NCBI GenBank assembly: GCA_045047115.1
Contig: JASFYR010000034.1
Location: 1-39,625 of the forward strand
Reading direction: 5' to 3'
Source of the DNA: Sulfurospirillum sp.
Lineage (GTDB): Bacteria > Campylobacterota > Campylobacteria > Campylobacterales > Sulfurospirillaceae
DNA: 39,625 nt
In this document: piece after piece, positions 13,836 to 38,603 of the stretch
Layout of the letters: each line of letters begins with the position of its first letter
Position numbering within the stretch: position 1 is the stretch's first letter
Position numbers and translations under genes: made by a program
The notes under the pieces: model-generated
Seen by the model: the letters and a program-made list of their open reading frames with translations, nothing else
What the model was told of the DNA's origin: nothing
Databases searched by the model: none

Positions 13836-13910
13836 ATTTTTGTCAACTCATTTCAAAAGGAGCAAATCCGTTCTTTGGTCTGACTCCCTTTAAAATGAGT
13901 TGACAAAAAT
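13836..13910. repeat. Long inverted repeat (27-bp arms) with conserved 21-nt core in the leuC leader
   Basis: Arms 13836-13862 and 13884-13910 (2 mismatches); core CAAATCCGTTCTTTGGTCTGA at 13863-13883. Confidence 0.9.
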
Positions 13911-13984
13911 CTACTGCTTGACCTTTGTTGAAAAAATATCACTAAATGTCAAGATTATACTTTCTCATTTTATCAAAAAACTAT

Positions 13985-14575
13985 TTAAGGTATCTTTGGA
14001 GCAAGGATTTTCTCTCCTATGAAGCCATAATTTGCACCTACTCTTGCCAATGGATTAAAATCTATGCGTAGTTTTTTGCTGTCAGTTATAGCACTGTCAT
14101 CAACAAACAGTTTTTTTATCTCCAGGATTATCGGTATGGTTTCACTGCCTTTGAGATCTATTTCTTCATAAAATTCACAAAAGTATGCCACAGGTGAGCC
14201 CTCGACCATAGGTGGAAAACCAACTTCAGCCTCTTTTAGTTTTACATCAAATTCTTTGGCTTCGCTGATGTTTGCATCTAGCTCTTTTGAGCTGAAGTGC
14301 AGTTTCTCAAGTTGCGTCTCACCAGCTATGCAAATGGTGCATTTTTTGGTATTTCTTATGTTTCTTAGTGTATCTTTTGGCTCACCACTGCTCTTGTGTC
14401 CTATGGAGACTATGAGAGTCGGAGGGTTTGAACTAAGAGGAGTAAAGTAACTAAATGGTGCTATGTTTATGCTTTTGTCCTTGGTGATTATCCATGCGAT
14501 TGGTCTGGGTATGGCTGTTTGGGCTGTAAGTTTATATCTGTCGCTAGGTTCTGTTTTGTCAAAATCAAATATCAT
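13985..14575 (-). CDS. Flavin reductase-like (FMN-binding split barrel) protein
   Basis: PRPIAWI, NIAPFSYF, KDTLRNI, PLARVGANY; ATG 14575 fits SD GAGGAG better than GTG 14581. Confidence 0.9.
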   Translation of the reverse strand: MIFDFDKTEPSDRYKLTAQTAIPRPIAWIITKDKSINIAPFSYFTPLSSNPPTLIVSIGHKSSGEPKDTLRNIRNTKKCTICIAGETQLEKLHFSSKELDANISEAKEFDVKLKEAEVGFPPMVEGSPVAYFCEFYEEIDLKGSETIPIILEIKKLFVDDSAITDSKKLRIDFNPLARVGANYGFIGEKILAPKIP

Positions 14576-14629
14576 TATCACTCCTCGTTATAAATAAATG
14601 GTATAATCATACCATAGAAAAGGAAAAAA

Positions 14630-15961
14630 ATGAGAAGATTTGAGCTGTTGAGAGTTGTGGACTATTTAAAAATTTTTAAAAAAATCAGTGCTATACAAAG
14701 AGTTGGCGATAATATTATAAGAATTGTTTTTGATAGACAAAAAGCCCTCTTTTTTGATTTAAGGCGCGGAGATTCGCATATATTTTTGAAAGATGATTTT
14801 AAAAAAGCCAAAATATACAAAGCTCCTTTTGATGTTGTTTTATCTAAAAAGTTTACCAATTCAAATATCTTAAATATGGAAGTGCTCAAAGATGACAGGA
14901 TTTTAAAGATAGATGTTTTGTCCAATTCAAAGTATAAATCCGATGAGGTTACTTTGCAGTTGGAATTTACAGGTAAAAATACAAATGCGATTATTTTGGA
15001 TAAAAACGGGATTGTTTTGGAGGCTTTGAGGCATATAGACTCTTTGTCTTCGTATAGAGAGGTGCAAACAGGGGTTATTTTAAAAGCTCTGCATGTGGAG
15101 CATAAATTTAGTCCGAAGCCAGGCGACAAGATAGAGGATATAGAGAAATTTTTAGCCAATGAGTACGAAAAAAGAGCAAAAAACTCCCTTGCTTCTTTGA
15201 AAAAGCAGAAAATTGCAAATATAGAAAAGAAAATAAAAAAACTTCAAAAACTTTTGAACAGTTTGCAAAACGAAGAGGAGTTGCTCACCAAAAGTGAAAC
15301 TTACGCCTTGTGGGGAACTCTGATTTTTAGTAACATTGACAAGATAAAGGGTTATGAAAAAAATATAGAATTGGTTGATTTTGAGGGGGAGTCTATAGTG
15401 ATCTCTCTGCCGAAAGAGGCAAGAAGCGGTGTGGAAGCCGGCAATATACTCTTTGATGCTTCTAAAAAGCTAAAAAGAAAAGCAAAATCTTTATATATCG
15501 AAAGAGAGAATTTGGGTAGCAAGATAGAGTTTTTCAAAAAGCTGCAAAATGCCATAAATCAAGCAAGTGATGAGGTAGAGACAAATATACTCTATCCTAA
15601 GCAAAAACACCAAAAAAGAGCACAGGGCAGACAGGTGCCATATGAGAGTTTTTACATAGAGGGCTTCAAAATGATGCTTGGAAAAAATGAAAAAGGTAAC
15701 ATCGAGTTACTAAAAGAGGCAAAAAAAAGAGATATTTGGTTGCATCTAAAGGATATGCCATCATCTCATGTTATAATAAGAACAGATAAGCAAAATATAC
15801 CAAAAACCGTTTTGGAGTTTGCTGCAAAACTCTGCGTTGAGTTCAGTGTCTCTCAAAAAGGTTCTTATTTGGTCGATTATACTCAAAGAAGGAATGTGAA
15901 GATAGATGTTGGCGCACATGTAAACTATGTGGATTACAAAACTATAAGTACAACTATTTAA
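14630..15961 (+). CDS. NFACT/RqcH (FbpA-like) ribosome quality control protein
   Basis: DDRIL..LQLEFTGKNTNAII, central coiled coil, GKNEKGN..L, DIWLHLKDMPSSHVII, VDYTQRRNVK. Confidence 0.88.
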   Translation: MRRFELLRVVDYLKIFKKISAIQRVGDNIIRIVFDRQKALFFDLRRGDSHIFLKDDFKKAKIYKAPFDVVLSKKFTNSNILNMEVLKDDRILKIDVLSNSKYKSDEVTLQLEFTGKNTNAIILDKNGIVLEALRHIDSLSSYREVQTGVILKALHVEHKFSPKPGDKIEDIEKFLANEYEKRAKNSLASLKKQKIANIEKKIKKLQKLLNSLQNEEELLTKSETYALWGTLIFSNIDKIKGYEKNIELVDFEGESIVISLPKEARSGVEAGNILFDASKKLKRKAKSLYIERENLGSKIEFFKKLQNAINQASDEVETNILYPKQKHQKRAQGRQVPYESFYIEGFKMMLGKNEKGNIELLKEAKKRDIWLHLKDMPSSHVIIRTDKQNIPKTVLEFAAKLCVEFSVSQKGSYLVDYTQRRNVKIDVGAHVNYVDYKTISTTI

Positions 15962-15972
15962 AGGAAAATATT

Positions 15973-16296
15973 ATGGCAATAGGTCCTGTTGGTGCGGTTG
16001 CATATGCAAATCAGGCGATGCCGGCACAAACCAAAATGCAGTCAAACTTTCAAAACAGACTAGATGCGCAAGCCGGAGCAGCTACGGCTATACAAGATGC
16101 CGATAAGCAAGAGATAGAAGATGTTAGACCGGCAGAAGAGACCTATAAAATTGACCCTGAGCACGAACATGAAAAGAAAAAAAACGATGAAGAGCAGCAG
16201 GGAAATAAAGAAAAACCAAAAAAAGACGATACGGAACAACAGGAAAAAGAAACTGCAGAAATTTTCACCACTAGACACCTAGATATAAAAGTCTAA
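15973..16296 (+). CDS. Hypothetical protein (acidic, C-terminal HLDIKV)
   Basis: SD AAGGA; sits between the NFACT gene and cdsA, an arrangement I recall from Campylobacter. Confidence 0.8.
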   Translation: MAIGPVGAVAYANQAMPAQTKMQSNFQNRLDAQAGAATAIQDADKQEIEDVRPAEETYKIDPEHEHEKKKNDEEQQGNKEKPKKDDTEQQEKETAEIFTTRHLDIKV

Positions 16297-16349
16297 GGAT
16301 AAACTCACACGATATAGGATAAAATACTATAAAAATAGGTGGAAAAATA

Positions 16350-17114
16350 ATGAATATCAAAGAAATTTACACTTCCCACAAAGAGAGGATACTGACCTCA
16401 ATTGTATTAGTTGGAGTTGCGTTAATTGTTGCTCTTGTTGACAAGACTCTTCTTACATGGGTGATGATGGGTGCTATATATTTGGTCTCTTTTTATGAAG
16501 CTATGAGCCTGTTTGGTTTGAGCGATAAAAGATATATGGTTTATGCGGTTGCACTCTGGCTGGCGGTTTTGATATATCCTAATCCTGATGATCTTTTTTA
16601 TCTTATCATTATCGTGGCTGTATCTGTAATGGTACACAAAAAAGATGTTAATTTAAGGCTTTTGAGCCCGTTTGTTTATCCGACACTCTCTATGTTGTTT
16701 TTGTTTGCTCTGTATAAAGATTTTGGTATGAGTACACTTATATGGCTTGTAGTTATCGTAGCATCTACTGATACAGGTGCTTATGTGACAGGAAAAAGCA
16801 TAGGCAAAACTCCTTTTTCAAAAACCTCTCCAAATAAGACTTGGGAAGGTGTGATAGGAGGAATTCTTATAGCTACTGTTTTGGGCTCTATAATTGGTCT
16901 TGGCAGTGTTGATTTGAGTATATCGGTAATTGTCTCATTTTTTGCTGCTCTCTCATCTGTTTGGGGTGATCTTTTTGAGAGTTATTTGAAAAGAGTTGCC
17001 GGAGTGAAAGACAGCGGAACTATTTTCCCAGGACACGGTGGTATGCTCGATAGATTAGATGGCTATCTGTTTGCTTCAATCGTTATGGTTGTGCTACTTA
17101 GAGGATTGCTATAG
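16350..17114 (+). CDS. cdsA: Phosphatidate cytidylyltransferase
   Basis: DTGAY..G, SPNKTWEG, GDLFESYLKR..GVKDSG..FPGHGGMLDRLD. Confidence 0.97.
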   Translation: MNIKEIYTSHKERILTSIVLVGVALIVALVDKTLLTWVMMGAIYLVSFYEAMSLFGLSDKRYMVYAVALWLAVLIYPNPDDLFYLIIIVAVSVMVHKKDVNLRLLSPFVYPTLSMLFLFALYKDFGMSTLIWLVVIVASTDTGAYVTGKSIGKTPFSKTSPNKTWEGVIGGILIATVLGSIIGLGSVDLSISVIVSFFAALSSVWGDLFESYLKRVAGVKDSGTIFPGHGGMLDRLDGYLFASIVMVVLLRGLL

Positions 17115-18188
17115 ATGATTTTGCTGGGATCTACCGGTTCTATAGGCGTAAATACTCTGCAACTTGCAAAAAAATTTGCTCTACATGTAGAAGTCTTAGC
17201 AGCAGGAAAAAATATAAACCTGTTAAATAGACAGATAGAGGAATTTCATCCAAAGTATGTTTGCATTGCCAATAAGGCTGATATCCAAAGAGTGAAGCAC
17301 AACAGAGTATTTTATGGAAGTGAAGGGATACTTGAAGTTATAAATTTAGCCAAAAGTGATTTGGTTGTAAATGCTCTTGTTGGTTTTGCCGGTCTTGCAC
17401 CCTCAGTTGAGACTCAAAAGTTAGGCAAGAGACTGGCTTTGGCAAACAAAGAGTCTTTAGTGGTTGCGGGAAATCTGCTTGATACCTCAAAAATTATTCC
17501 GATAGACAGTGAGCATTTTGGGTTAAAGTACCTATTGAGCGATAAATTGGTAAAATCTATGATTATAACAGCGAGTGGCGGATCATTTAGGGACACACCG
17601 CTTGAAAAACTTTCATCCATGAGTTCAGCCGAAGCACTGAAGCATCCAAACTGGAAGATGGGCAAAAAGATCACAATAGACAGTGCGACTATGACAAATA
17701 AAATCTTTGAGCTCTTGGAGGCAAAGTGGCTATATGGTTGCGAAAATTTAGATGCTATCATAGAGACAAAATCCATTATTCATGCTTTTATCAATTTTGT
17801 AGATGGAAGCACAACTGCTCATATCGCAAATGCCGACATGAAACTTCCTATCTCTTTTGCACTTAAAGGAGAGATAAAGGAGGAGATTTTGCCGCATGTA
17901 GATTTGAAGGAAGTTGGAAATTTAGAGTTTAGAGAGATAAAAGAGAGCAGATATCCGATGTGGGAGATAAGAGAAGATATACTTAAAAATTCTAAACTTG
18001 GAGTCGTTTTAAATGCTGCAAATGAAGTGAGTGTCGAGAGTTTTTTGAATAATGAGATAAATATACTCGATATCGCAAAGATAAACAAAAGAGCATATAG
18101 GTATTTTAGCGATATAAAACCAAAAAATTTAGATGATATTTTTGAGATAGATAAAGAGGTAAGAAAATTTTCTAAAGGAGATTTATGA
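17115..18188 (+). CDS. dxr: 1-deoxy-D-xylulose-5-phosphate reductoisomerase
   Basis: LGSTGSIG, LANKESLV, PIDSEH, TASGG, HPNWKMGKKITIDSATM. Confidence 0.97.
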   Translation: MILLGSTGSIGVNTLQLAKKFALHVEVLAAGKNINLLNRQIEEFHPKYVCIANKADIQRVKHNRVFYGSEGILEVINLAKSDLVVNALVGFAGLAPSVETQKLGKRLALANKESLVVAGNLLDTSKIIPIDSEHFGLKYLLSDKLVKSMIITASGGSFRDTPLEKLSSMSSAEALKHPNWKMGKKITIDSATMTNKIFELLEAKWLYGCENLDAIIETKSIIHAFINFVDGSTTAHIANADMKLPISFALKGEIKEEILPHVDLKEVGNLEFREIKESRYPMWEIREDILKNSKLGVVLNAANEVSVESFLNNEINILDIAKINKRAYRYFSDIKPKNLDDIFEIDKEVRKFSKGDL

Positions 18189-19432
18189 GTAAGACAGACT
18201 ATAACTTACGCTTGAAAGACAGCATAGTTGGTTTGCAGTTTTTGTTTGTGGCATTTGGCGCCCTGGTTCTTGTTCCGATTTTGACAGGACTTGATCCAAA
18301 TGTTGCTCTTTTTACAGCCGGTCTTGGAACACTTCTGTTTCAGCTTATCAATAGACAAGCGGTTCCGCCTATATTTTTGGCTTCATCTTTTGCTTTTATA
18401 GCACCAATCATATATGGAGTTAAAACCTGGGGAATTGCAGGAACCATGTCCGGTCTCGCAGCAGCCGGTCTCTTATATGTAGTTCTTAGTTTTGCAATCA
18501 GACTGTATGGTTCCAAGTTTATACATAAGATTTTACCGGCAGTCGTAGTAGGACCGGTGATTATGACCATCGGCTTGATACTTTCTCCTGTGGCAGTTCA
18601 TATGGCGATGGGAAAAACGGGTGATGGAGCTATAACTTTGGTCCCTTTTGACAAGGCGATTGTTATATCTATGATATCGCTTGCAACAACCATGCTCGTC
18701 TCCTTGCTCGGAAAAGGAGTATTTAGACTGTTGCCTATCCTTTCAGGTGTTTTTATGGGATATATAATCTCTTTGATGTATGGAATAGTAAGTTTTGATG
18801 CTGTTCATAAAGCTGCCTGGTTTGCTATGCCAAAATTTGTGGCACCTGAACTCAACTGGCAGGCGATTTTGTATATAGTTCCTATAGCAATTGCTCCGGC
18901 AGTTGAGCATATAGGAGATATATTGGCTATCAGTCGTGTAACCAAGAGGGATTATCTAAAGAAACCCGGACTTAAAAATACGCTTTTAGGCGATGGCCTG
19001 GCTACAAGTTTGGCTGCTTGTTTTGGCGGTCCCCCAAACACTACATACTCTGAAGTAACAGGGGCTGTTACTATCACAAAAGCTTATAATCCGGCCATCA
19101 TGACCTGGGCTGCGATATTTGCTATAATTTTGGCATTTGTTGGAAAGCTTGGTGGCCTTTTGGCTACTATTCCGGTGCCTGTTATGGGTGGAATTATGCT
19201 TCTGCTTTTTGGAATAATCACTTCTATCGGTATGGGAACACTGATAAAGGAGAAAGCTGATTTGGAAGATCCGAGAAATATGATCATAGTCTCTATGATT
19301 TTGGTTTTTGCCATAGGGGGTTTTACTTTTGACTTTGGTGGAGTCGCTTTTAGCGGTATCGGATTAGGAGCAGTTGTGGGGATATTCTTAAATTTAGTAT
19401 TGCCAAAAACAAAACATTTAGAGGGTTATTAA
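18185..19432 (+). CDS. uraA: Uracil/xanthine permease (NCS2 family)
   Basis: QFLFVAFGALVLVP, LASSFAFI, EHIGD, GPPNTTYSEVTG signature. Confidence 0.9.
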   Translation: MSKTDYNLRLKDSIVGLQFLFVAFGALVLVPILTGLDPNVALFTAGLGTLLFQLINRQAVPPIFLASSFAFIAPIIYGVKTWGIAGTMSGLAAAGLLYVVLSFAIRLYGSKFIHKILPAVVVGPVIMTIGLILSPVAVHMAMGKTGDGAITLVPFDKAIVISMISLATTMLVSLLGKGVFRLLPILSGVFMGYIISLMYGIVSFDAVHKAAWFAMPKFVAPELNWQAILYIVPIAIAPAVEHIGDILAISRVTKRDYLKKPGLKNTLLGDGLATSLAACFGGPPNTTYSEVTGAVTITKAYNPAIMTWAAIFAIILAFVGKLGGLLATIPVPVMGGIMLLLFGIITSIGMGTLIKEKADLEDPRNMIIVSMILVFAIGGFTFDFGGVAFSGIGLGAVVGIFLNLVLPKTKHLEGY

Positions 19433-19450
19433 ACTAAAAGAGGCAGAGAG

Positions 19451-22204
19451 ATGAGATTTAACAACAGTAAACAACTATTAAGACTTATGATTCTTATAGC
19501 CGTACTTAGTTTTATTTTAATTTCTGCCTCTTTTATATATGTTTTTACAACAAACTCACTGGAAAATTACAATAATTCTTTGCGTAATATAAATAAAATA
19601 TATAGCAACAGAGCCAAAATGGAAGCCCAAGACAAGATTCAAAAGTTGGTTGATTTCATTGATATATACAAAGGCACACTTGAGGAAAAAGCAAAGGAAT
19701 CGGTAAAGGAAAATGTTGATGCCGGTCTAGAAGTCATCAAAAGTATCTATAGGCAATTTAGCACTCTTCCAAAAAATATAATTCTTCAAAAAATTAGAGA
19801 CAGTCTAAGAAACAAGAGATATACGATACGAAGAGCCATAAATTTAGTAAAAACAAAAAATGAGAGTTATTCAACTTGGTGGTGGTATAAAATCGGTGAA
19901 AAAAAGATGAAAAAAAAGATTGGTTTTGTTGAGATTTTTAAGCCGCTTGGTATATTTATAGGGGCAGGAAGATATGAAGAAGATATCTTAAAACAGATCA
20001 AAAAATATCTCAAAAAATATCTCTCAACTTTGCAAAAAGACCAATTTGGCTACATTTTTGCTTATGATGTTTTGGACAATACTGTCATGGGTAATGGGGA
20101 TTTTAAAAATATCAACAGATGGAATGATGTAGTCCATGGAAGGCATATTGTAAGAGATGCCATAAGAGGTGCATATGCAAATCCTGATGGATTTTTTATG
20201 GATTATCTCTCGAGAGACGGAAAGAAAAGGATTTCTTATGTAAAATTAATTCCTGGTTTGAACTGGGTTATTGGTACACAAGTTCAAGATTACCATAAAC
20301 TGTATATAAAACAAAAAAAGATCATAAAAGAGGGTTTAAAACAAACTATATATAAAAGCGTGCTGATCTCCTTTTTGATTTTATCAGTTATGCTGACTCT
20401 GTTTTTGTTATTGTCAATAAAAATTAAAAAACTTTTTAAGAAACTAGAGCATACTGTTGAAAACAGAACTGTGGAGCTGATAGAGCAAAAAAATATATTT
20501 AAAAAACTTTTTGATACGGCATCTGATGGTATAGCACTCTCAAAAAACAGGAAAATATATGAATGCAACAGTTCGACCTTGAGAATATTTGAAGCGATAG
20601 ATAAAGATAGATTTTTACAATTAAAAACCAAAGATTACTTTCCTGATAAGCAAGGCAATGGTGAAAATTCTATGGAGTTGATAGAGAAAAAATTAGATAT
20701 CGCCAGAAAGGAAGGCAGAGTCGAATTTGAAATAATGGCAAAGACTCTCAATGGCAGAGACATATGGCTAAATATCGCAGCTACGCAGATTGTTTTACAA
20801 AATACACTGGCCGGTTATTTTGTTTTTAGAGACATAACCCAAAGGAAAAGAGTAGAAAAAAATTTGCAGATTCAACAGAAAAAGTTAATTTTTCAGGCAA
20901 AACATGATCCTTTGACTTCTTTGCCAAACAGAATGTTTTTGATGGATAGACTCTCGCAAGGCATAAAAAGAGCAAAAAGGGGAGGAAGGTGTCTTGCTGT
21001 TGCATTTATGGATATTGACAATTTTAAAATTGTCAATGATGCATTTGGGCACGATATGGGTGATTTGTTGCTTATCGAGATAGCAAGTGTTTTAAGAAGT
21101 ATGCTAAGAGTCACAGATACGGTTTCAAGAGTGAGTGGTGATGAGTTTGTCCTGATTATTGATGATTTAAGCTCTATTGATGACAATACAAGTATCATCC
21201 AAAAAATTGTAGATAGGTTTCAAGAGCCATTTTATATAAAAAACAACCCTTTTAGTATAACTTTTAGTATAGGTATCTCTATATATCCAAATGATGCGCA
21301 AGATGAGCAAGATTTATTAAAATATGCTGATATGGCGATGTATAGAGCTAAAAATAGCGGCAAGAACAGATATATTTATTATGATGAGAGCATGAATTCC
21401 AATGTTTTGGAACACATAAAGATAGAACAAGAGATAAGAGACGGTATGAAAAACGACGAGTTTATACTTCATTATCAACCTCAACTTGAAGTAAAAACAG
21501 GAAAAATAGTTGGATTTGAGGCTTTGGTTAGATGGCAACATCCCAGACTCGGGCTTAAATATCCGGATTATTTTATACAACTAGCCGAAAACAGCAGTCT
21601 TATGATACCTTTGGGTGAAGCTATATCTAAAAAAGCTATGCATCAAACAGCTTTGTGGTACGCCAAAGGATTGAATCCGGGCATCATGTCTATCAATTTT
21701 ACATCAAAGCAACTTGAAAGTAGTAACTTTTTTGAGAAATTGGAAGATTTACTTAAAGAGACGGGGTGTAGACCTGAGTGGATCGAAGCAGAATTAGTAG
21801 AGAGATATGTGATGAGAGATACCAAAAAAACTACTGATTTGCTCAGGTGTTTCAGAGATATAGGGATAAAAGTGGCGATAGATGATTTTGGGACGGGTTA
21901 CTCGTCACTTAGTTATCTAAAGTACCTTGAAATTTCAAAACTAAAAATTGATAAAGCATTTATAGACGAACTAGAAAATGATAAAAAAGACCAAGCTATC
22001 ACAAAGAGTATAATAGATCTCTCTATTGGTTTGGATTTGGAAGTTTTAGCAGAAGGCGTTGAGACTGAAAAACAGTATGAAATCTTAAAAGATTTAGGAT
22101 GCCAGATAATCCAGGGATACTACTTCTCTAGACCGATTAGCGGCGATGAAGCACAGAAATTACTGGCAGGAAAATCACAAGAAAAACAGCAGATACCAAG
22201 ATGA
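19451..22204 (+). CDS. Membrane-bound Cache-PAS-GGDEF-EAL protein (diguanylate cyclase/phosphodiesterase)
   Basis: Two TM helices flanking Cache-like domains, PAS ending RDITQRK, HDPLTSLPNR, SGDEF, EALVRW, DDFGTGYSSL, KID, AEGVE, QGYYF. Confidence 0.93.
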   Translation: MRFNNSKQLLRLMILIAVLSFILISASFIYVFTTNSLENYNNSLRNINKIYSNRAKMEAQDKIQKLVDFIDIYKGTLEEKAKESVKENVDAGLEVIKSIYRQFSTLPKNIILQKIRDSLRNKRYTIRRAINLVKTKNESYSTWWWYKIGEKKMKKKIGFVEIFKPLGIFIGAGRYEEDILKQIKKYLKKYLSTLQKDQFGYIFAYDVLDNTVMGNGDFKNINRWNDVVHGRHIVRDAIRGAYANPDGFFMDYLSRDGKKRISYVKLIPGLNWVIGTQVQDYHKLYIKQKKIIKEGLKQTIYKSVLISFLILSVMLTLFLLLSIKIKKLFKKLEHTVENRTVELIEQKNIFKKLFDTASDGIALSKNRKIYECNSSTLRIFEAIDKDRFLQLKTKDYFPDKQGNGENSMELIEKKLDIARKEGRVEFEIMAKTLNGRDIWLNIAATQIVLQNTLAGYFVFRDITQRKRVEKNLQIQQKKLIFQAKHDPLTSLPNRMFLMDRLSQGIKRAKRGGRCLAVAFMDIDNFKIVNDAFGHDMGDLLLIEIASVLRSMLRVTDTVSRVSGDEFVLIIDDLSSIDDNTSIIQKIVDRFQEPFYIKNNPFSITFSIGISIYPNDAQDEQDLLKYADMAMYRAKNSGKNRYIYYDESMNSNVLEHIKIEQEIRDGMKNDEFILHYQPQLEVKTGKIVGFEALVRWQHPRLGLKYPDYFIQLAENSSLMIPLGEAISKKAMHQTALWYAKGLNPGIMSINFTSKQLESSNFFEKLEDLLKETGCRPEWIEAELVERYVMRDTKKTTDLLRCFRDIGIKVAIDDFGTGYSSLSYLKYLEISKLKIDKAFIDELENDKKDQAITKSIIDLSIGLDLEVLAEGVETEKQYEILKDLGCQIIQGYYFSRPISGDEAQKLLAGKSQEKQQIPR

Positions 22205-22946
22205 TGCTTGCACCCGATGTTAAATCATATACATATGAAAAATAGAGCCCTGTTAGAGTAAATGCAAGTGAAAAGGCAGCAGATAGACTCATCATAGATG
22301 CCAGAGACGAGGAGAGTTTTTCTGCGATATATACAGGTATGGTCAGGAGTGCAATGACCAAGATGAGCCCCACTATCTTTATCGCAACAACTACGGTTAG
22401 AGCCGAGAGAATTAAAATAAGAGTATAAAAAAATCTTACATTTACACCTCGCAGAGCTGCATATTCACTATCATAAGAGACTGCCAAAATATCCCTGTAC
22501 CATACAATTACTACGGTTAAAATCACAAACAGCAGTATGGATATAAAGTAGAGATCATTTTTACCGACTGCCAGAATTGAGCCAAAAAGGTAGCTCATCA
22601 AATCCACATTGTATCCTGGAGTCAGATCAACAAAGATGACGCCAATCGCCATACCAACCGCCCAGATAAGTCCTATGAAAGTATCCATTCTGTTTCTTTG
22701 TTTCATGCTGATGAAAGCCAAAAGCAAAGCAGCACCTACTGCAAATAAAGAGGCGCCTAAAAATATAGGAATTCCAAAGTATATAGCCATGCCAATTCCG
22801 CCATATGAGGTATGTGCGATGCCCCCGGCTAAAAAAACCATACGGTTTACCACTATCAATGAGCCGATGATCCCAGCACAAATGCTAAGCAATACGCCAG
22901 CTATAAGAGCATTTTGGATGAAGTCATATGAGAGTGCATCTAGCAT
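22137..22946 (-). CDS. znuB: Metal (Zn/Mn) ABC transporter permease
   Basis: AGGIAHTSYGG, DLMSYLFGSIL, VGLILVIALLTIP; ATG 22946 overlaps the znuC stop region. Confidence 0.88.
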   Translation of the reverse strand: MLDALSYDFIQNALIAGVLLSICAGIIGSLIVVNRMVFLAGGIAHTSYGGIGMAIYFGIPIFLGASLFAVGAALLLAFISMKQRNRMDTFIGLIWAVGMAIGVIFVDLTPGYNVDLMSYLFGSILAVGKNDLYFISILLFVILTVVIVWYRDILAVSYDSEYAALRGVNVRFFYTLILILSALTVVVAIKIVGLILVIALLTIPVYIAEKLSSSLASMMSLSAAFSLAFTLTGLYFSYVYDLTSGASIILVSAVFLVIFLPVISVLHRR

Positions 22947-23695
22947 AGACAACTCTTTTGTGTTTTGTTGCCTAGCATATTTAAGAGTTCAACTTCGCAA
23001 AAATGTGACTTTTGGGTATCAAATTTTTTATTTTTGATATCTATATCATGCAGCACCAAAGTTCGATTGATATATGCTACTTTTGAGGCGTATTCAAGTA
23101 TGATAGATATATCGTGACTTACTACGACGACTGTTATGCTTTTATTGAGATTTTGAAGGAGTTTGTAGATATCTTTTTGTCCTTTTACATCTATGCTTGA
23201 GGTTGGTTCGTCAAACAGCAGTATTTTTGGATTTGCAAACAGAGCACGAGCAATCATCACTCTTTGTCTCTGCCCGCCTGAGAGTGAGCCTATTTTCTTG
23301 TTTAAAAATTCCAACATACCTACTTTTTCCAGGGCATTTTTTGCTTTAGTAAGTTCTTCTTTGTGATATCCTAAGAAAAATCTCTCTTTTGTGGTGTGCC
23401 CCATTAGTACGACCTCTATGGCTTTTATAGGAAAATCCGTATTTATGTTTGTATTTTGAGGAACATATCCGATTCTTTCCAGACACTCTTTAGAATCTAC
23501 ACCATCGATTTTAATACTCCCTTTCTGAATCTTGTTTATGCCTAGGATTAGCTTCAAAAGAGTTGATTTTCCACCACCGTTTGGACCGATTATAGCCAAA
23601 AAATCTTTTGGATAAATGTTCAGGTTTATATCTTTGAGTACGATCTGTTTTTCGTAGGCAAAAGAGAGATTTTCTATCTCAAGTGTCGGTTTCAT
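22940..23695 (-). CDS. znuC: Metal ABC transporter ATP-binding protein
   Basis: Walker A GPNGGGKST, LSGGQRQR, FDEPT, VSHD, C-terminal HFCEVE; start at ATG 23695 overlapping the znuA stop (ATGA). Confidence 0.9.
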   Translation of the reverse strand: MKPTLEIENLSFAYEKQIVLKDINLNIYPKDFLAIIGPNGGGKSTLLKLILGINKIQKGSIKIDGVDSKECLERIGYVPQNTNINTDFPIKAIEVVLMGHTTKERFFLGYHKEELTKAKNALEKVGMLEFLNKKIGSLSGGQRQRVMIARALFANPKILLFDEPTSSIDVKGQKDIYKLLQNLNKSITVVVVSHDISIILEYASKVAYINRTLVLHDIDIKNKKFDTQKSHFCEVELLNMLGNKTQKSCLC

Positions 23696-27055: not shown

Positions 27056-27062
27056 TTTAGGT

Positions 27063-27155
27063 CCCTGACCCCTTTTTTAAACTTTTTTAAACTCTTTTTT
27101 AAACTCTGACCCCTTTTTTAAACTCTGACCCCTTTTTTAAACTCTTTTTTAAACT
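27063..27155. repeat. Tandem array of six units ending TTTTTAAACT; full unit CTGACCCCTTTTTTAAACT
   Basis: Unit lengths 19,10,12,19,19,12 ending at 27083, 27093, 27105, 27124, 27143, 27155. Confidence 0.9.
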
Positions 27156-28420: not shown

Positions 28421-28428
28421 TTTTTTGT

Positions 28429-28540
28429 CCCCTTTTTTAGGGGCGAAGCCCCCAAAAAATTCCTCGCGACTGAAGCTTCACCGTTGGCGAGAAGTACTAT
28501 TTTATATACTGAAGCTTTGGCTGTCGCCAAGAAAATTTTT
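28429..28540 (-). promoter_or_regulatory. Structured fliQ leader: long imperfect hairpin plus competing anti-SD helices
   Basis: Arms about 28455-28480 and 28510-28540; GGGGC-N3-GCCCC at 28440-28452; CCCCU can alternatively pair with SD AGGGG. Confidence 0.55.
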
Positions 28541-28603
28541 CTCTTATATCGGAAGTGAATTCCGTAAAATTTTTTATACTTATACTTTAGATGCCGCTAA
28601 AAT

Positions 28604-29467: not shown

Positions 29468-29564
29468 GTGTAATCCTAGTGTATTGATATGCTAAAATTA
29501 TACTCGCTTTTTTATAAAAAGCTTCTTTTAGGTATAATAAGATGCTAAAAAGCAAGGAAAATAT

Positions 29565-29666
29565 ATGTCATATGTGATTATGGGGATAATAGTTGTTTTT
29601 GTCATCTCTCTACTGGTTATTGGTTTTATTATGGATGGAGAAAATGAGGAGGATAAAGAGGAGTAG
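29565..29666 (+). CDS. 33-aa small single-pass membrane protein (not in ORF track)
   Basis: MSYVIMGIIVVFVISLLVIGFIMDGENEEDKEE*; TATAAT at 29533-29538 and SD AAGGA upstream. Confidence 0.65.
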   Translation: MSYVIMGIIVVFVISLLVIGFIMDGENEEDKEE

Positions 29667-29714
29667 TATAAAGGGATTTTCAAGCACAAAATGATAAAAT
29701 AAATAAAAATTATA

Positions 29715-29833
29715 TAGACTTTTTTCAATACTTGTATTTGAGAGGCTCTGTAACCGATAGGTCGAAATCTTTGATTTTGGAGATACCCGTCGCGTGAAGC
29801 TTGAGTGATAATACGAGTATTGAAAAAAGTCTA
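29715..29833 (+). repeat. Long inverted repeat (24-bp arms) enclosing a 71-nt structured core in the recA leader
   Basis: TAGACTTTTTTCAATACTTGTATT (29715-29738) pairs with AATACGAGTATTGAAAAAAGTCTA (29810-29833), one G-U pair on the + strand. Confidence 0.88.
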
Positions 29834-29849
29834 ACAAACAAGGAAATTT

Positions 29850-32140
<2,291 letters not shown>

Positions 32141-32145
32141 AGTAG

Positions 32146-32412
32146 ATGAGTAAGATTTTAAGTGAGTTTGAAAATGGAGGCAGTAAAAAAAGCGAAAGCG
32201 TTTTTTATGTCAAAATTTTCTTTCTTGCTTTAGTGGTTGTCTTTTTTGGCATTTATGTAGGTGATATTTTGTTTGGCAAAAGCTCTTTAGAGGTCCTTTT
32301 GGATTTGCAACAGAGCAGAGATAATCTAAAACAAAATGTTAAGATTATAAAAGAAAAAAATGCTCTTTTGCAAAAAGAGTATTTTGAACTTAAACAGTTG
32401 GAGCCGAATTAA
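32146..32412 (+). CDS. Septum-formation initiator (FtsB/DivIC-like) membrane protein
   Basis: One TM helix followed by FGKSSL and a short leucine-zipper coiled coil; directly after eno. Confidence 0.7.
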   Translation: MSKILSEFENGGSKKSESVFYVKIFFLALVVVFFGIYVGDILFGKSSLEVLLDLQQSRDNLKQNVKIIKEKNALLQKEYFELKQLEPN

Positions 32413-32420
32413 GGAGATTG

Positions 32421-33074
32421 ATGAAAATTTTACAACTTTTTTTACTGTTGGGTGTTTTGTGTTTTGCGAGAGACAATCCTTTTGCTCCTGTAGAAAATAT
32501 TGCCAAATTTACACAACTGCCCAAACAGGATAAGCATTTTAAAAAAGCAGATTTTTCCTTGCCCGACAGCGCTAGAGTTTTGAAGAAAGTCGATGTTTAC
32601 TATCAAAATTTAGACGGCTCAATTTCACGCCGTGTTGTTCAAATAGATAAAAAGATTGATTGGCATGATGAATTTATGCTGACCTATAAAAAAGATTTAC
32701 AAAATCAAAAAAAGGCAAAGAGAACAACTCTTCTTACTGCTGAAAAAACACAACAAAATCAATCTGAAAATGAGATAAAAAGTTTTAAATACAAAGGCTT
32801 TATATCCTTTAAGGTTGGCAAAAAGCGGTTGGAGATTTTTACAAAGGACAGAAAAATACGAGATTTTATGGTGGATAAACCATATAAGATAGTGATAGAC
32901 TTCAAAAGGGATACAAATTTTCTAACTAAAAGCTTCAAAGTGGATATGCCACCTTTTGTATCCATAGTTTTAGGAAATCACGATAAATACTACAGGGTTG
33001 CGATAGAGCTCGATGGACAATATGTGTATAGCTTAAAAAAAGCCAAGGGTGATTATATAGTCACCCTTAAGTAG
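32421..33074 (+). CDS. Periplasmic AMIN-domain protein
   Basis: Signal peptide (CFA-RDNPF), C-terminal PYKIVIDF...GNHDKYYRVAIELD; SD AAGGAG. Confidence 0.8.
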   Translation: MKILQLFLLLGVLCFARDNPFAPVENIAKFTQLPKQDKHFKKADFSLPDSARVLKKVDVYYQNLDGSISRRVVQIDKKIDWHDEFMLTYKKDLQNQKKAKRTTLLTAEKTQQNQSENEIKSFKYKGFISFKVGKKRLEIFTKDRKIRDFMVDKPYKIVIDFKRDTNFLTKSFKVDMPPFVSIVLGNHDKYYRVAIELDGQYVYSLKKAKGDYIVTLK

Positions 33075-33076
33075 TA

Positions 33077-34357
33077 TTATTCTGCCGGTGTTCGTTCATT
33101 TGGTCCAAGATATAGTTGTCTAGGACGAGCTATTTTCATGTCTGCCTGTTCTTTTAGTTCAATCCATTGAGCAATCCACCCCGGAGCTCTTCCCATTACA
33201 AATATGACTGCAAACATCTCTTTTGGAATTTTTAGGGCATTTAATATAAGACCGGAATAAAAGTCAATATTTGGATAGAGTTTTCTTTTTACAAAATACT
33301 CATCACTTAGTGCTATTTTTTCTATCTTATTTGCGATTTCGAGTAAGCGGGAATCTATATTTAATTCATTTACAAGTTTATCTCTTAATTCCTTTAATAT
33401 GGTTGCTCTTGGATCAAAATTTTTATAGACTCTATGCCCAAATCCCATCAATCTAAACGGGTCATTTTTATCTTTTGCTTTTGCTATATATTTATCAACA
33501 TTTTCTACACTGCCTATGAGTTCCAATTGACGAATTACAGATTCGTTTGCTCCGCCATGTGCTCTTCCCCAAAGTGCACTGACTCCGGTTGATATAGCAG
33601 CGTAAGGGTGCGCCTGGGTTGAAGCGACAACCCTAACAGCAGTGGTTGAAGCATTTTGTTCGTGGTCTGCATGCAGAGTAAATATGGTGTCAAGCGCCTC
33701 TACTTCGATAGGTTTTAATTCTATATAATTATGTGGATATGCTCTTAACATAAATAAAAAATTTTCAGTAAATCCCTTCGTCAAATCAGGATATATAACC
33801 GGATGACCCTGTGAGTATCTATATGAAAAAGCAGCAATTGTGGGAATCTTGGCGATAATTCTATGTGCCATCTCTATAACTTCTTCAGGAGTATCCATAT
33901 CCAGAGAATCAGAGTAGAATGCAGAGAGCGATGCAATTGCAGAAGAAAGAATTGCCATTGGGTGGGCATTGTCCGGAAAAGCATCAAATAGTTTTTTCAT
34001 ACTTTCATTGATATAAGATCTCTTTTTCAACTCAAATTGAAATGCTTTTAGCTTTTCCTCTGAAGGTAAATCTTTGTGCAGTAATAGATAGACGACATCC
34101 AAAAAAGTTTTTTTTGTAGCAAGATAAGATATATCATATCCTCGGTACATTAATTTGCCTTTGCCACCATCTATATAAGTAATCTTGGATCTGCAGCTTG
34201 CTGTTGAAGTGAAACCTCTATCATATGTGAACATTCCTGTGTCTTTGTAAAATGTAGAGATATCTACGACACTAGGTCCCATTGTCGGGTTAAGAATGGG
34301 AAATTCATATTTTTCCCCTGTTCGATTATCTATGACACTGATACTATCTTTGCTCAT
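33077..34357 (-). CDS. gltA: Citrate synthase
   Basis: ITYIDG..G.LMYRGY, LHADHEQNAST, HGGANE, LMGFGHRVYK, YPNIDFYSG. Confidence 0.98.
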   Translation of the reverse strand: MSKDSISVIDNRTGEKYEFPILNPTMGPSVVDISTFYKDTGMFTYDRGFTSTASCRSKITYIDGGKGKLMYRGYDISYLATKKTFLDVVYLLLHKDLPSEEKLKAFQFELKKRSYINESMKKLFDAFPDNAHPMAILSSAIASLSAFYSDSLDMDTPEEVIEMAHRIIAKIPTIAAFSYRYSQGHPVIYPDLTKGFTENFLFMLRAYPHNYIELKPIEVEALDTIFTLHADHEQNASTTAVRVVASTQAHPYAAISTGVSALWGRAHGGANESVIRQLELIGSVENVDKYIAKAKDKNDPFRLMGFGHRVYKNFDPRATILKELRDKLVNELNIDSRLLEIANKIEKIALSDEYFVKRKLYPNIDFYSGLILNALKIPKEMFAVIFVMGRAPGWIAQWIELKEQADMKIARPRQLYLGPNERTPAE

Positions 34358-34445
34358 TTTTCTCTCCTTTGAACTGTTTTCTACTATATTACAAGATAAT
34401 TTATTAGAGAAAGCAAATTCTATCAGGTTATATATTTTTTTTATG

Positions 34446-35597
34446 TTATTTGTTATTTTTGTAATTTTGTGAGGTTATTTTTATGAAAATCATGACAAAT
34501 ATAACTTCAAATATACTAGCCAAAACAAAAGATAGATAGGTAAAATAATCTATGCTACTTGAGTTGTATGCTATCGTGGCAACTGCTATAAGCAGTGTCA
34601 ATGGCATGGAGTGTGACAGGGCAAAAAGAAAAATCTCTTTTTTATTTAGTATATTTATAAATACAAAAGATGCCATAACTCTTGAGCCTATCATAAGGGA
34701 TGTTATCAACAGGGCATTTAGCACCAAGCCTTCTGAAACTAAAGATTTAAGCTCAAAAGTTGAGCCTATATATATAAAAAAGATGGGAACTAAAAATCCA
34801 AATCCAAATGATGAGAGTTTTTCCGGTAGTTCTCTTTTGTGCTCAAAAAATGTGTTTATAAAAATTCCTGCTACAAAGGCACCAAAAGCAACCTCCAAAT
34901 GCAGATATAACATAACTGCTATAAGAGCAAAAAATATCGCCATAGACAGTCTGATATCTTTTTCTTCTTTGTCTGCATGAGGCATCAAAAAAGTTTTCAG
35001 TTCCGGATACCACCAAAAAAGAATTTTTAGAAGTTTAAATAACACAACCATTGAAGCAAGAAATACAATAAGATATATAATGGTTTCATAAAGTTTTACA
35101 CCAACACCAAACTCCAAAGCTGCGCCAGCCAAAGTAAGAAGTATAATGGAAGTAAGTTCGCCCATAGTGCCAACTACCATAGAGAGATTGAGCCATTTTG
35201 TATCTTTGCCATACTCTTTATAGAGGGTTAAAATCAGGCCGACAGAGAGCATGGGTAAAAGGATTATGAGGATTTTATTTAAATTAAAATAGTATATACC
35301 GACAAAAGAGATGATGTATAAAAAGATCAAGTATAAAAAACCCTCTTTGATGACTGAGCTTTTTTTGTTGGTAAAAATCCTCAGATCAACCTCCATTCCC
35401 GCCATAAACATAAGATAAAAAAACCCTACATCTGCCAGGAGTTTAAAAAGATAGTGATCGCTTAAGAAACCAAAAAATGCTGCTATCGAGCCAAATATGA
35501 TTTCGATAGCAGGGGAGGGTATATGAAAATATCTGGAAAAAAATGGAGAAGTCGAGAGAATCACCGAAATGGTGATAATGATACCTATCTCATGCAT
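34446..35597 (-). CDS. Cation:proton antiporter (CPA2-like)
   Basis: About 12 TM segments; MFMAGMEVD, GAFVAG, GFGFLVPIFFIYIG. Confidence 0.85.
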   Translation of the reverse strand: MHEIGIIITISVILSTSPFFSRYFHIPSPAIEIIFGSIAAFFGFLSDHYLFKLLADVGFFYLMFMAGMEVDLRIFTNKKSSVIKEGFLYLIFLYIISFVGIYYFNLNKILIILLPMLSVGLILTLYKEYGKDTKWLNLSMVVGTMGELTSIILLTLAGAALEFGVGVKLYETIIYLIVFLASMVVLFKLLKILFWWYPELKTFLMPHADKEEKDIRLSMAIFFALIAVMLYLHLEVAFGAFVAGIFINTFFEHKRELPEKLSSFGFGFLVPIFFIYIGSTFELKSLVSEGLVLNALLITSLMIGSRVMASFVFINILNKKEIFLFALSHSMPLTLLIAVATIAYNSSSIDYFTYLSFVLASIFEVIFVMIFIKITSQNYKNNK

Positions 35598-36435
35598 CGC
35601 AGTACGAGGCTATCTTGTATCCGGCATTTTTTATCATCTCTATATCTTTGTTTGGCTCATTTCCTTTTGTTGTAAGATAGTTGCCTATGACTATAGAGTT
35701 TGCACCGGCATCGAAGATTTTGCTCTGTTTTGTTTTAAATGTAATCTCTCTACCGCCTGCTATCATCACTCTGGTGTCTGGAAGTTCATTTCGGACATAA
35801 TTGATGATTTTAAGTGCTTCGTCTTCATTCATGGGCTCTTTTTGTATAGGAAGTGCAGGATTTGGATGAAAAAAATTCATAGGAAAAGTAAACGGATCCA
35901 GCTCTTTTATGCTTTGGACAAATGCCACTCTATCGTCTTTGCTTTCCCCAAGCCCAAATATACCACCACTTACAAGCTTTAGTCCCGCTTCCTTTACATG
36001 TAGGCAAGTTTGGTATCTCTCTTCCCAGGAGTGTGTAGTGCATAAAGTTTTGTAAAACTCTTCAGAGCTCTCTAGATTATGGTTATAAAGATCGACTCCG
36101 GCACTTTTTAGGATTTTTAATTGGTTGAGATTTGCAAGTCCGTTGCAAGCTATGATATTTAACTCTTTAACCTCTTTTTTTACAGCCTCACAAGTCCTGC
36201 AAACAAAGTCAAGTTTTTTATCGTCCAATCCCCTGCCTGAAGTTACTAAGCAAAAGCCGAGCGCACCTGTTTTTTTTGCATTTTTAGCTTCTGTGATTAT
36301 TTCGGATATATCTTTGTACTTGTATCTTTGTATATTTGCATGATGTTTTGAACTTTGAGTGCAAAATCCGCAATCTTCATTGCAACTCCCGCTTGAGATG
36401 TTGCTGATGGCGCATAAAAAAACCTCTTTTTTCAT
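35590..36435 (-). CDS. bioB: Biotin synthase
   Basis: Radical SAM CNEDCGFC, CLVTSGR, YNHNLE, GGIFGLGE, AGGRE, GANSIVIGNYLTT. Confidence 0.96.
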   Translation of the reverse strand: MKKEVFLCAISNISSGSCNEDCGFCTQSSKHHANIQRYKYKDISEIITEAKNAKKTGALGFCLVTSGRGLDDKKLDFVCRTCEAVKKEVKELNIIACNGLANLNQLKILKSAGVDLYNHNLESSEEFYKTLCTTHSWEERYQTCLHVKEAGLKLVSGGIFGLGESKDDRVAFVQSIKELDPFTFPMNFFHPNPALPIQKEPMNEDEALKIINYVRNELPDTRVMIAGGREITFKTKQSKIFDAGANSIVIGNYLTTKGNEPNKDIEMIKNAGYKIASYCDA

Positions 36436-38501
36436 TACGCATCCTCTTTATATTTGCATTTTGGGCACTCAAAAATCTGTTTTTTTCTTAGCTCTCTGGT
36501 TATCATCATTTCATCACACTCGGGACATTTTTTATTTGTTGGTTGGTATGTAGAGACAAATTTACACTTTGGATAGTTTGTGCAACCGTAAAACTTTCCT
36601 CTACGGGAAAATCTCTCTACTATATCGCCTCCACAAAGAGGACACTTGACCCCCTCAACTATGACTTTTGCTTTTTTTTCTGTTTTACCTAGATTTTTAG
36701 TATATTTGCATTTTGGGAAGGCACTACAAGAGATAAACTCTCCAAATCGACCTTTTCTTTTGACCAGTTCTTCGCCACACTCGGGACATTTTTCACCGAT
36801 GGGAATCACAACTTTGAGGCTTTTTATATTTTTTTTGCCTTTTTCTATATTTTCCATAAAAGGTGTATAAAAATCACCAAGTGTCTTTTGCCAGTCCGCC
36901 TTGTCTTCTGCGATGAGGTCAAGTGTCTCTTCCATGTCCGAGGTAAAAGAGCTGTCAACTACTCTTGGAAAATTCTTCTCCAAAAGATCTATAACAGTGA
37001 AGGCTATCTCTGTTGGAATTATCTGTTTTTTCTCTATGGTTATGTAGCTCCTTGCTACAAGCGTGGAGACAGTCGGGGCATAGGTTGAAGGACGACCTAT
37101 GCCTAAAGATTCCAGCTTTTTGATAAGACTTGCTTCGCTATATCTTGAAGGTGGCTCGGTAAAGTGTTGGTTTGCTTCTAGTTTGCTCAATTCTACCTCT
37201 TCGTAAGTTTTTAAGTCTGGCAAAAGTTTGTCTTTGTCACTAGCACCATAAACCCTGTAAAATCCATCAAAGAGAAGTTTTCTGCCACTTGCTTTAAACT
37301 TGCCACTTTGAGATTCAAAGATGAGTGTTTGAGACTCAAAAAGTGCACTATTCATCTGCGAAGCTAAAAATCTGTTGTATATCAAAGAGTAGAGTTTGAG
37401 TTCATCCGGTTTTAGATACTCTCTTGCTATTTGCGGTGTAAACTCTATGAGAGTTGGCCTTATGGCCTCGTGTGCTTCTTGCGCGCCTTTACTTTTTGAT
37501 TTGTAGTATTTTGGCTTGGCAGGCAGATATTTTTGTCCATAGGTATCTAGTATGTGCTCTCTTGCCTCTTCAATAGCCTCTTTTGCAACATTTAGAGAGT
37601 CTGTTCTCATATATGTAATGACTCCTTGAGTACCCTTATGAGTTTTAACACCCTCGTAGAGAGTTTGGGCCAGCATCATAGTCTTTTTAGGTGAAAAGCC
37701 AAGTACACTTGAGGCATTTTGCTGAAGTGTTGAAGTCATAAAAGAGGGACCAGGAGAGCTTTTTCTCTCTTTTTTATCAATTTTAGAGACTTTGAAATTT
37801 TCACTCTTTAGTCTGTTTTTTATCTCATTTGCTCTGTCTTTGTTTGTGATAGTCATCTTGTCTATCTTTTTTCCGTCAAACTCTACAAGCAGGGACTCGA
37901 TATTTTTATTGAAAAGGGCATCTATGCTCCAAAACTCTTGGGGATTAAAAGCTCTTATCTCTTTTTCTCGATCAACTACGATTTTTAGCGTAGAGCTTTG
38001 AACACGCCCTGCACTTAAGCCTTTTTGAACTTTTGATGCTAAAAGTGGTGAGAGTTTGTAGCCCACTATCCTATCGAGTAGCCTTCTTGTTTGCTGTGCA
38101 TTTATACTCGAAAAGTCTAGTTTGCGGGGATTGTCAAGTGCATTTTGTATGGCTGTTTTTGTTATCTCATGGAAAACGATGCGGGGAAGCTCTTCGGGTT
38201 TTTTGCCAATGGCGGTGGCTATGTGAAAACCTATGGCTTCACCCTCTCTATCCTCATCCGTCGCGATATAGACAGTATCTGCTTTTTTTGCAAGATCCTT
38301 TATCTCTTTGACTATTTTCGAGTGATCTCGTGGTGTTCTATACTCGGGAGTAAACTTTCCATCCTCTATCTTGATGCCAAAACTACTCTTTGGAAGATCT
38401 CTTACATGCCCTTTTGAGGCTATGACGGAGTAATTTCTACCTAGAAAATTTTTGATAGTTTTTGCTTTTGTCGGTGATTCGACTATGATTAAATTTTTCA
38501 T
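36435..38501 (-). CDS. topA: DNA topoisomerase I
   Basis: IVESPTK, ATDEDREGEAI, SAGRVQS, catalytic ITYMRTDS, AQEAHEAIRPT, GIGRPSTY, C-terminal Zn ribbons. Confidence 0.98.
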   Translation of the reverse strand: MKNLIIVESPTKAKTIKNFLGRNYSVIASKGHVRDLPKSSFGIKIEDGKFTPEYRTPRDHSKIVKEIKDLAKKADTVYIATDEDREGEAIGFHIATAIGKKPEELPRIVFHEITKTAIQNALDNPRKLDFSSINAQQTRRLLDRIVGYKLSPLLASKVQKGLSAGRVQSSTLKIVVDREKEIRAFNPQEFWSIDALFNKNIESLLVEFDGKKIDKMTITNKDRANEIKNRLKSENFKVSKIDKKERKSSPGPSFMTSTLQQNASSVLGFSPKKTMMLAQTLYEGVKTHKGTQGVITYMRTDSLNVAKEAIEEAREHILDTYGQKYLPAKPKYYKSKSKGAQEAHEAIRPTLIEFTPQIAREYLKPDELKLYSLIYNRFLASQMNSALFESQTLIFESQSGKFKASGRKLLFDGFYRVYGASDKDKLLPDLKTYEEVELSKLEANQHFTEPPSRYSEASLIKKLESLGIGRPSTYAPTVSTLVARSYITIEKKQIIPTEIAFTVIDLLEKNFPRVVDSSFTSDMEETLDLIAEDKADWQKTLGDFYTPFMENIEKGKKNIKSLKVVIPIGEKCPECGEELVKRKGRFGEFISCSAFPKCKYTKNLGKTEKKAKVIVEGVKCPLCGGDIVERFSRRGKFYGCTNYPKCKFVSTYQPTNKKCPECDEMMITRELRKKQIFECPKCKYKEDA

Positions 38502-38514
38502 TTTTTACCTATTT

Positions 38515-38603
38515 ATATATCAAGTTTTCTCAGACTTAAGCTTAGAAACAAATCCTCCCTTTGGTCTGAGCCTCACACTTAAGTTTGAGAAAACTTGATG
38601 TAT
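38515..38603. repeat. Long inverted repeat (26-bp arms) with conserved 21-nt core in the topA leader
   Basis: Arms 38515-38540 and 38578-38603 (2 mismatches); core CAAATCCTCCCTTTGGTCTGA at 38549-38569. Confidence 0.9.

Follow-up and report, generated by a model that had tools for sequence, protein, structure and literature searches.

Within a 39,625-nucleotide (nt) stretch of the genome of a Sulfurospirillum sp. (assembly GCA_045047115.1, contig JASFYR010000034.1, positions 1 to 39,625, forward strand; hereafter the window), an initial annotation drew attention to two long hairpins in the 5' leaders of leuC and topA, which share a short central core between arms that it took to be unrelated. 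[quoted passage not shown] The features at the two leaders are as follows.

12530-13795, minus strand: leuC, 3-isopropylmalate dehydratase large subunit (TIGR02083, above cut-off)
13836-13910: MITE copy in the leuC leader (arms 13836-13862 and 13884-13910, 27 nt, 93% complementary; covariance-model match 13834-13913)
13863-13883, minus strand: 21-nt conserved core of the leuC copy; the mRNA carries the UCAGACC strand
13911-13935: extension past the leuC arm, also present in G004, G003 and others in longer copies, which are partly tandem
13967-13974, minus strand: putative -10 box of the leuC promoter, by consensus; kept in the empty leaders of relatives
36435-38501, minus strand: topA, type I DNA topoisomerase (TIGR01051)
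38515-38603: MITE copy in the topA leader (arms 38515-38540 and 38578-38603, 26 nt; 37-nt core 38541-38577)
38549-38569, minus strand: 21-nt conserved core of the topA copy
38622-38629, minus strand: putative -10 box of the topA promoter; kept in filled and empty leaders

Both hairpins were re-found with the coordinates and arms first reported, each lying on the minus strand between the -10-like box and the Shine-Dalgarno (SD) sequence of its gene. The pattern CAAATCC-N3-CTTTGGTCTGA occurs in both, giving two matches in the window against 0.04 expected, a count that none of 100 shuffles reached, and the hairpins fold with z-scores of -6 to -10 relative to shuffled sequences. The core is thus shared as described, but its length of 21 nt does not hold, as the shared core in most copies runs to ~35-37 nt. 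The leuC core is the most diverged among the G000 copies (score 34; the remaining ten score 50-64), and the leuC copy belongs to a subfamily with an inner stem paired throughout and has terminal-repeat ends that have decayed. Matches in G004 span window positions 13836-13935, and the alignments suggest that this subfamily was mobile in a longer form.

Genome-wide scans of G000 (100% complete by markers), one allowing mismatches and one using a weight matrix, found 11 copies (scores 34-64, nothing else above 13), and a covariance model, with 150 candidates scored per genome, recovered the same 11; it counted 43 copies in G012, 15 in G039, three in G010 and none in G013. All 11 G000 copies have arms and lie close to a start codon, either between genes or at the edge of one, so the core is neither confined to the two leaders nor armless, and the proposed dispersed family, in which the core is conserved and the complementary arms vary, is real, with many more copies in relatives. 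A 31-nt core pattern matched 14 of 41 related genomes and no controls. The exact core was found in at least 121 stretches of species genomes and at least 121 of metagenomes, and the compiled set holds 273 distinct copies, of which 10 share a locus and are left out of the locus comparison below; nearly all the genomes are metagenome assemblies. Among the matches listed, named records are almost all Campylobacterales (labelled Sulfurimonas, Sulfurospirillum, Sulfurovum, Campylobacteraceae and Arcobacteraceae), and two records assigned elsewhere have no arms and are probably chance matches. The core had no matches in viral contigs, and plasmids contained nothing matching the element beyond pieces of 22-31 nt, with no Rickettsia match among them. 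The initial annotation had recognised no named family, and none emerged here: no window match reached an Rfam gathering score, for a riboswitch or any other family, and generic hairpins gave sub-threshold matches on four loci. The family is apparently undescribed, no account of it having been found in a search of the full-text literature that left most subscription journals outside.

Of the 117 copies with enough flanking sequence, those in co-directional gaps number 42 in one orientation and 26 in the other; a further 40 are in divergent gaps, eight in apparently convergent gaps and one in a gene. Copies are mostly 45-75 nt from a start codon. A genuine preference for leaders was considered and appears weak, as the convergent (8/117) and divergent (40/117) placements compare with 12% and 25% of G000 intergenic bases. 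There was likewise no clear excess of an element-borne promoter on the UCAGACC strand. The neighbouring genes have no common function and include no recurrent mobile gene, and their clusters are housekeeping orthologues. The common orientation to the downstream gene noted for the leuC and topA copies is correct for those two but does not extend across G000, where the mRNA carries the UCAGACC strand at five copies and the opposite strand at six (as read from calls of open reading frames, or ORFs, taking the nearer start in divergent gaps). With orientations of 5:6 in G000 and 42:26 among the co-directional copies, and with unrelated genes downstream, the family does not have the features of a cis-regulatory leader RNA. 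The proposal of a recognised motif displayed in mRNA sense is likewise not supported, the orientation being mixed and flipping at orthologous sites.

The arms, far from being unrelated, are diverged homologues of the terminal repeat of an insertion sequence (IS). Pairing in 150 of 159 copies (a single register) is Watson-Crick at 86-96% of positions 7-25 nt out from the core and at ~55% by 27-28 nt, and because it drops so sharply there, the stem is fixed in length and low in sequence information. One near-identical arm, which we call the master, recurs in several copies of different genomes; searched alone, it matched 20 of 41 genomes and no controls. A 17-nt arm motif bounds 918-bp elements in G015 (seven copies) and a 910-bp element in G012, which code for HTH_Tnp_4 (PF13613) and DDE_Tnp_4 (PF13359) in two overlapping ORFs. 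The best NCBIfam model for this transposase is NF033581 (IS5 family), each half scoring under the whole-protein cut-off; the C-terminal halves from the two elements are 60% identical, and plasmid relatives are annotated as IS5-like ISMae4 and ISCysp19. A DDE transposase between perfect repeats of 19-20 bp (two flanking bases counted in), a length of ~0.9 kb and a short duplication identify it as an IS5-family element, which we take to be of the subgroup named ISL2. The copy at L307:1501-2418 (G015) breaks a sensor-kinase-like ORF, and its transposase is split between two frames at an A-run, as a programmed frameshift would predict.

The same ends also bound MITEs of 44, 53, 80, 117-122, 163, 168, 225 and 270-273 bp with other interiors. 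The core-bearing elements are short (79-82 bp) and non-coding, with inverted terminal repeats in arms of 18-36 bp, and have these repeats in common with the autonomous IS. Agreement with the 910/918-bp IS ends reaches 15-17 of 17 positions in intact copies (12/139 copies), among them a G000 copy on C38 that matches at 17/17; the leuC copy matches at 11/17 (shuffle p ~0.005) and the topA copy at 9/17 (p ~0.25, alone not significant). A constant interior with variable ends had been read as the reverse of the MITE pattern, which holds for old copies alone, young ones being ordinary MITEs. In the region G000 C38:3142-4287, the copy with perfect ends overlaps the end of an arginase-like gene, and a gene that looks by eye integrase-like lies ~240 nt downstream. 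In Sulfurimonas-labelled copies such as L015, L110, L154, L184 and L192, the two sides of the stem base often read CCG and CTA, a conserved asymmetry that the IS end does not account for. The arm ends may also resemble those of the Rickettsia palindromic element RPE-1.

If the element is scored as starting one base inside an apparent TA, direct repeats of 3 bp, almost invariably AAT or ATT, lie on either side of 8/9 IS copies (32% in a cross-copy control), 13/27 intact core copies (control 21%) and 15/27 other MITEs (control 31%). Intact copies therefore carry an IS-like target-site duplication; the leuC and topA copies show none. A 2-bp duplication of TA was considered and replaced by the 3-bp one (0/9 versus 8/9 IS copies), the frame test being unable to separate the two. 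In a few intact copies, the AAT target forms the end of an adjoining -10-like hexamer.

Orthologous sites occur both filled and empty. Empty leuC, topA and recA leaders are ~30 nt long, and the aligned leaders included none with a single arm, the arrangement that insertion with an inverted duplication had been expected to leave; since empty leaders hold no arm, the arms arrive with the element. G000 is itself empty at many loci that are filled in congeners. At leuC, the 13 other genomes of the genus whose leader was read comprise eight empty leaders, three independent-looking copies, one other repeat and one short hairpin, and this leader may be an insertion hot spot. The topA-site copy has orthologues in G001, G002, G003, G008 and G011 and is absent from G005, G007, G009, G012 and G013; its core is decayed in three of the six carriers (G002, G003, G008). 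In mog leaders from the genus of G039, a sample not chosen by core, the element is present in 11 of 68: seven copies have at most one core change, two have a recurrent allele, one is decayed and one is reversed with three changes. Across the leuC leaders of 14 species (L061-L074), four different-looking MITE copies and one other repeat were seen in the 30-nt leader.

Compared within genomes (in groups of 10-17), copies have 90-100% identity at the fixed core positions and 44-53% in the arms, and pairing inside a copy is 91-97%. The G012 cores include 36 that are perfect, six that carry a single change and one at background level (none carries two), and a structure-based search added one copy, with a decayed core, in G012 and four copies in G039, so that the uniformity of the core is not only a search bias. 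The majority sequence of the G012 arms lies close to the IS end, and the arms depart from this majority at 0-14 of 20 nt. Arm changes are compensated: relative to the master arm, arm pairs of 29 G012 copies are changed on both sides in 162 cases and on one side in 21, and the two-sided changed cells number 87, a value reached by none of 500 shuffles. Core changes are as rare in copies with the most-changed arms as in those with few changes (3/414 versus 3/324 positions in G012). Pairing extends at least 3 nt into host flanks in 18 of 42 G012 copies, against 2.6% in the control (p=4e-18), and arises there only after insertion. The tiny mobile unit that had been suggested is therefore right in kind and wrong on the inverted duplication of its target, as the empty leuC, topA and recA leaders lack an arm, and this creep into the flanks preserves a weaker form of the idea. 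The divergence of the arms needs no hypermutation, because congeners are already ~60% identical at third codon positions; some orthologous arms are nearly unchanged between species.

The core occurs in both orientations at 10 of 39 loci represented in two or more genomes, and at five of these the arms are at least 80% alike. In the two closest species pairs, four of seven shared sites are flipped. The pair L423/L427, counted within the seven shared sites and outside the 39 loci (one contig ends nearby), is identical at 120/120 flank and arm bases with the core reversed. Both orientations are thus seen between sister genomes, a comparison among genomes and not within a population. Cores also differ in sequence where their surroundings agree: L433 and L438 have identical flanks and arms with 4/37 core differences, and L445 and L449 have a flank-and-arm score of 116/120 with 6/38 core differences. 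At one locus (L575/L576, L573/L581) a single multi-base core allele is carried on two different arm backgrounds, and three other genomes have it as well. Exchange of cores among copies fits these alignments better than locus-by-locus selection, with few pairs behind the comparison.

Mismatches of the G-U/G-T type are distributed 90:27 between the UCAGACC strand and the other strand in 147 copies. The bias persists (31:7) where the UCAGACC strand is antisense to the mRNA, so the fold follows the element's own strand and not the mRNA. Over 181 loci the ratio is 149:44, with 105:20 in the inner stem and 44:24 in the outer. The cause could be deamination where a strand is exposed, biased repair of the hairpin, or selection acting on the element when single-stranded. 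Because the bias favours one element strand, the recognised motif of the initial annotation may survive as a strand-specific, single-stranded one.

The explanation that we prefer, and consider likely as a full neutral account (a MITE with arm copying, inversion and core exchange), would start from a 79-80 bp MITE with arms descended from IS5-family terminal inverted repeats. An IS5-family transposase acting in trans would probably have spread it, duplicating A(A/T)T at AT-rich intergenic sites; we found the transposase in three of 41 genomes (G012, G015, G032), and G012 has the most copies. The inserted copy would be a near-perfect palindrome in which template switching or recombination between the arms copies changes to the partner arm, and the same arm-to-arm events would erode the transposase ends, draw in a few flanking bases and invert the core. 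Exchange between copies, a step that we hold less firmly, may keep the core uniform genome-wide with the arms staying locus-specific, by way of non-allelic gene conversion, probably in repair of the extruded hairpin. In a 5' leader the element is predicted to give a long stem in the RNA, with cleavage by RNase III or reduced translation as a possible side effect.

Several observations weigh against this account. Only 24/139 copies match the IS end at 13/17 or better and 52/139 beat their own shuffles, leaving 87/139, the topA copy included, that do not; for the Sulfurimonas- and Sulfurospirillum-labelled copies, descent from the IS would be read from the shared core and stem length, not from the ends. 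Over all 139 copies there is no target-duplication signal, which is lost in old copies. DDE_Tnp_4 is absent from G000 and the transposase query had no match in G039, so mobility in these two genomes must be past or borrowed. The family is dispersed over filled and empty orthologous sites, and a clean empty site came from only one of five close-relative searches, that for a 270-bp sibling with a 4-bp duplication; in the 80-bp family, one close-relative site was rearranged, one was a collapsed remnant (two ends only) and two were unassembled. Some inversions could be assembly errors, since the genomes are nearly all metagenome-assembled. Simple DDE transposition does not predict a fixed stem of ~26 bp or the near absence of core changes, which selection would fit equally well; the same is true of the wobble bias, the main unexplained result.

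Selection of that kind is central to the rival that survives best, a domesticated MITE, which we nonetheless judge unlikely. The core would be a host-protein binding site or a structured RNA loop under purifying selection at each locus, and a flip would swap an SD-like, GGA-rich loop for its anti-SD-like complement and so tune translation. The G012 core counts, with a single decayed core added there by the structure-based search, the covariation of the 4-bp helix closing the core and the usual distance of 45-75 nt from a start codon are consistent with it, as is the finding that orthologues at ~77% flank identity keep 99% of the core and 56% of the arms (a biased sample, mostly found by the exact core pattern). 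Correia elements, according to PMC10969869, are also found upstream of genes, undergo inversion and serve as substrates of RNase III. Yet 57 of the 68 mog leaders do without the element, cores decay at the topA site in three genomes, the downstream genes have no function in common, sister-species cores differ more than their flanks, and the wobble bias tracks the strand of the element even where this is antisense to the mRNA.

Decidedly unlikely, in our estimation, is a 35-bp invertible, exchangeable cassette whose core would be recognised single-stranded on a stem of ruler length, flipped and swapped among dozens of leaders without transposase ends, each flip converting an SD-like loop to an anti-SD-like one or back; it would constitute a genome-wide, recombinase-free phase-variation device of vent Campylobacterales.

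GNA-type DNA loops are stable, and three of the frequent loop triplets read as GNA loops on the UCAGACC strand. Together with the sharp stem length and the strand-specific bias, strongest near the core, they would suit a core that serves, on a single-stranded hairpin of fixed length, as a mobility signal for a second enzyme (of HUH/Y1 type or a host nuclease), such that copies with eroded ends still move or swap cores and the arms need only pair. One subfamily, found at several loci, combines derived arms with non-palindromic flanks that are conserved and with copies in tandem, and points the same way. We regard this as improbable, however: only 1/861 G012 arm pairs is identical over 20 nt, which argues against a burst of derived-arm copies, and the strand bias could equally come from one-strand deamination or biased hairpin repair. 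A link to Y1 transposases, raised as a possible co-occurrence by the initial annotation, was pursued and rejected, as no core-like sequence occurs within 30 Y1 loci and G039 has 15 copies and no match to Y1_Tnp (PF01797). REPINs keep their ends and vary inside; the family resembles REP/REPIN-RAYT systems in its intergenic hairpins with complementary, variable arms, and it lacks their association of flanking repeats with a Y1/RAYT gene. We give almost no credence to a unit of 21-36 nt that inserts and makes an inverted duplication of its target, or to arms as guides matching other loci: locus-specific arms and pairing that extends into host DNA would fit, but the armless orthologous empty leaders contradict it, the arms converge on one master that is the IS end, and the best matches elsewhere in G000 for 11 arms (16-18/20) equal those of shuffled arms.

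Among known systems, the MITE account places the family close to Nezha/ISNpu3 of cyanobacteria and RUP/IS630-Spn1, which, in the sections of PMC3184786 and PMC2229807 devoted to them, are likewise short, non-coding elements with the terminal repeats of an autonomous IS, possibly in another species, with target duplication, filled and empty sites and a long stem-loop. Unlike them, as far as those sections go, this family has an IS5-family partner (DDE_Tnp_4) and a 3-bp A(A/T)T duplication, and most copies have lost the IS ends and kept arm complementarity and core. Correia/nemis elements of Neisseria share paired ends of ~24-27 bp, a position often just upstream of genes, and a reported inversion (parts of PMC10969869, PMC3184786, PMC2229807), and their transcript stem is an RNase III substrate (PMC10969869, same part). 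In those accounts, however, the terminal repeats of Correia elements stay constant in sequence, their ends are TA, and the elements bring promoters or an IHF site, whereas here the arm sequence drifts, the interior is constant and the family is known from its DNA sequence. The bcr1 repeat of the Bacillus cereus group is also mobile and MITE-like, with compensatory base-pair changes that preserve its fold; it is ~155 bp long and cruciform with 5-bp direct repeats, and its entry in PMC3184786, in the portion concerned, mentions no inverting core. Caulobacter CIR and Rickettsia RPE are also palindromic repeats of intergenic regions, CIR with a conserved motif in the loop and RPE with long terminal stems, but in the portions of PMC2229807 that cover them the arms of CIR are two and separate, with a GANTC site, and RPE often fuses into reading frames.

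Other repeats in the window include the following.

28421-28560, minus strand: fliQ-leader repeat, two hairpins ending just before the start codon, of a different dispersed family
29715-29833: sibling MITE in the recA leader, 119 bp with a 71-nt core; arms near the same IS terminal repeat
29850-30875, plus strand: recA

Both leaders had been described as holding long hairpins with other cores. For recA this is a sibling element with a longer core, dispersed in its own right (at least 14 more distinct copies, from the genus and its close relatives); the recA leader is empty in G003 and most others, and G012 has a short-core element there. The fliQ hairpin belongs instead to a different repeat family, with 45 BLAST matches in G000. 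REP-like repeats of the GGGGTCAG type, partly tandem, lie at window positions 27060-27140 and 38677-38700; repeats of this type flank a Y1_Tnp (RAYT-like) gene at G000:C7:19806-20141 and are the local RAYT's own. Other nested-palindrome repeat families occur in G000 at C14:111446-111578, C11:62899-62993, C21:43094-43230, C10:52998-53096 and C11:6562-6660, with a CCC-N3-GGG mini-hairpin and loop triplets like those of the MITE core, also present in the 270-bp sibling MITEs. A longer core variant with an insert of ~40 nt has different arms in two genomes (L092:2605-2710, L211:225-350), and tandem copies with a period of ~96-98 nt and conserved non-palindromic flanks, related to the leuC subfamily, were seen in L137, L160, L170 and L242. 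AT-rich nested inverted repeats at window positions 3208-3300, between molybdopterin oxidoreductase and DUF3373 genes, are possibly an operator region.

The family is unusual in that its arms drift yet stay complementary and that its near-constant core is found in both orientations at orthologous sites. The paradox of a constant middle with variable ends would thereby become the ageing path of a MITE, and the family offers a clean natural data set on the evolution of short palindromes, in which arm changes come in pairs, pairing creeps into the flanks, micro-inversions occur and the loop evolves in concert. Such elements also yield strong false covariation signals in searches for RNA motifs. 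If the orientation of the core alters the expression of leuC, topA or recA, the family would amount to a dispersed and very small phase-variation switch.

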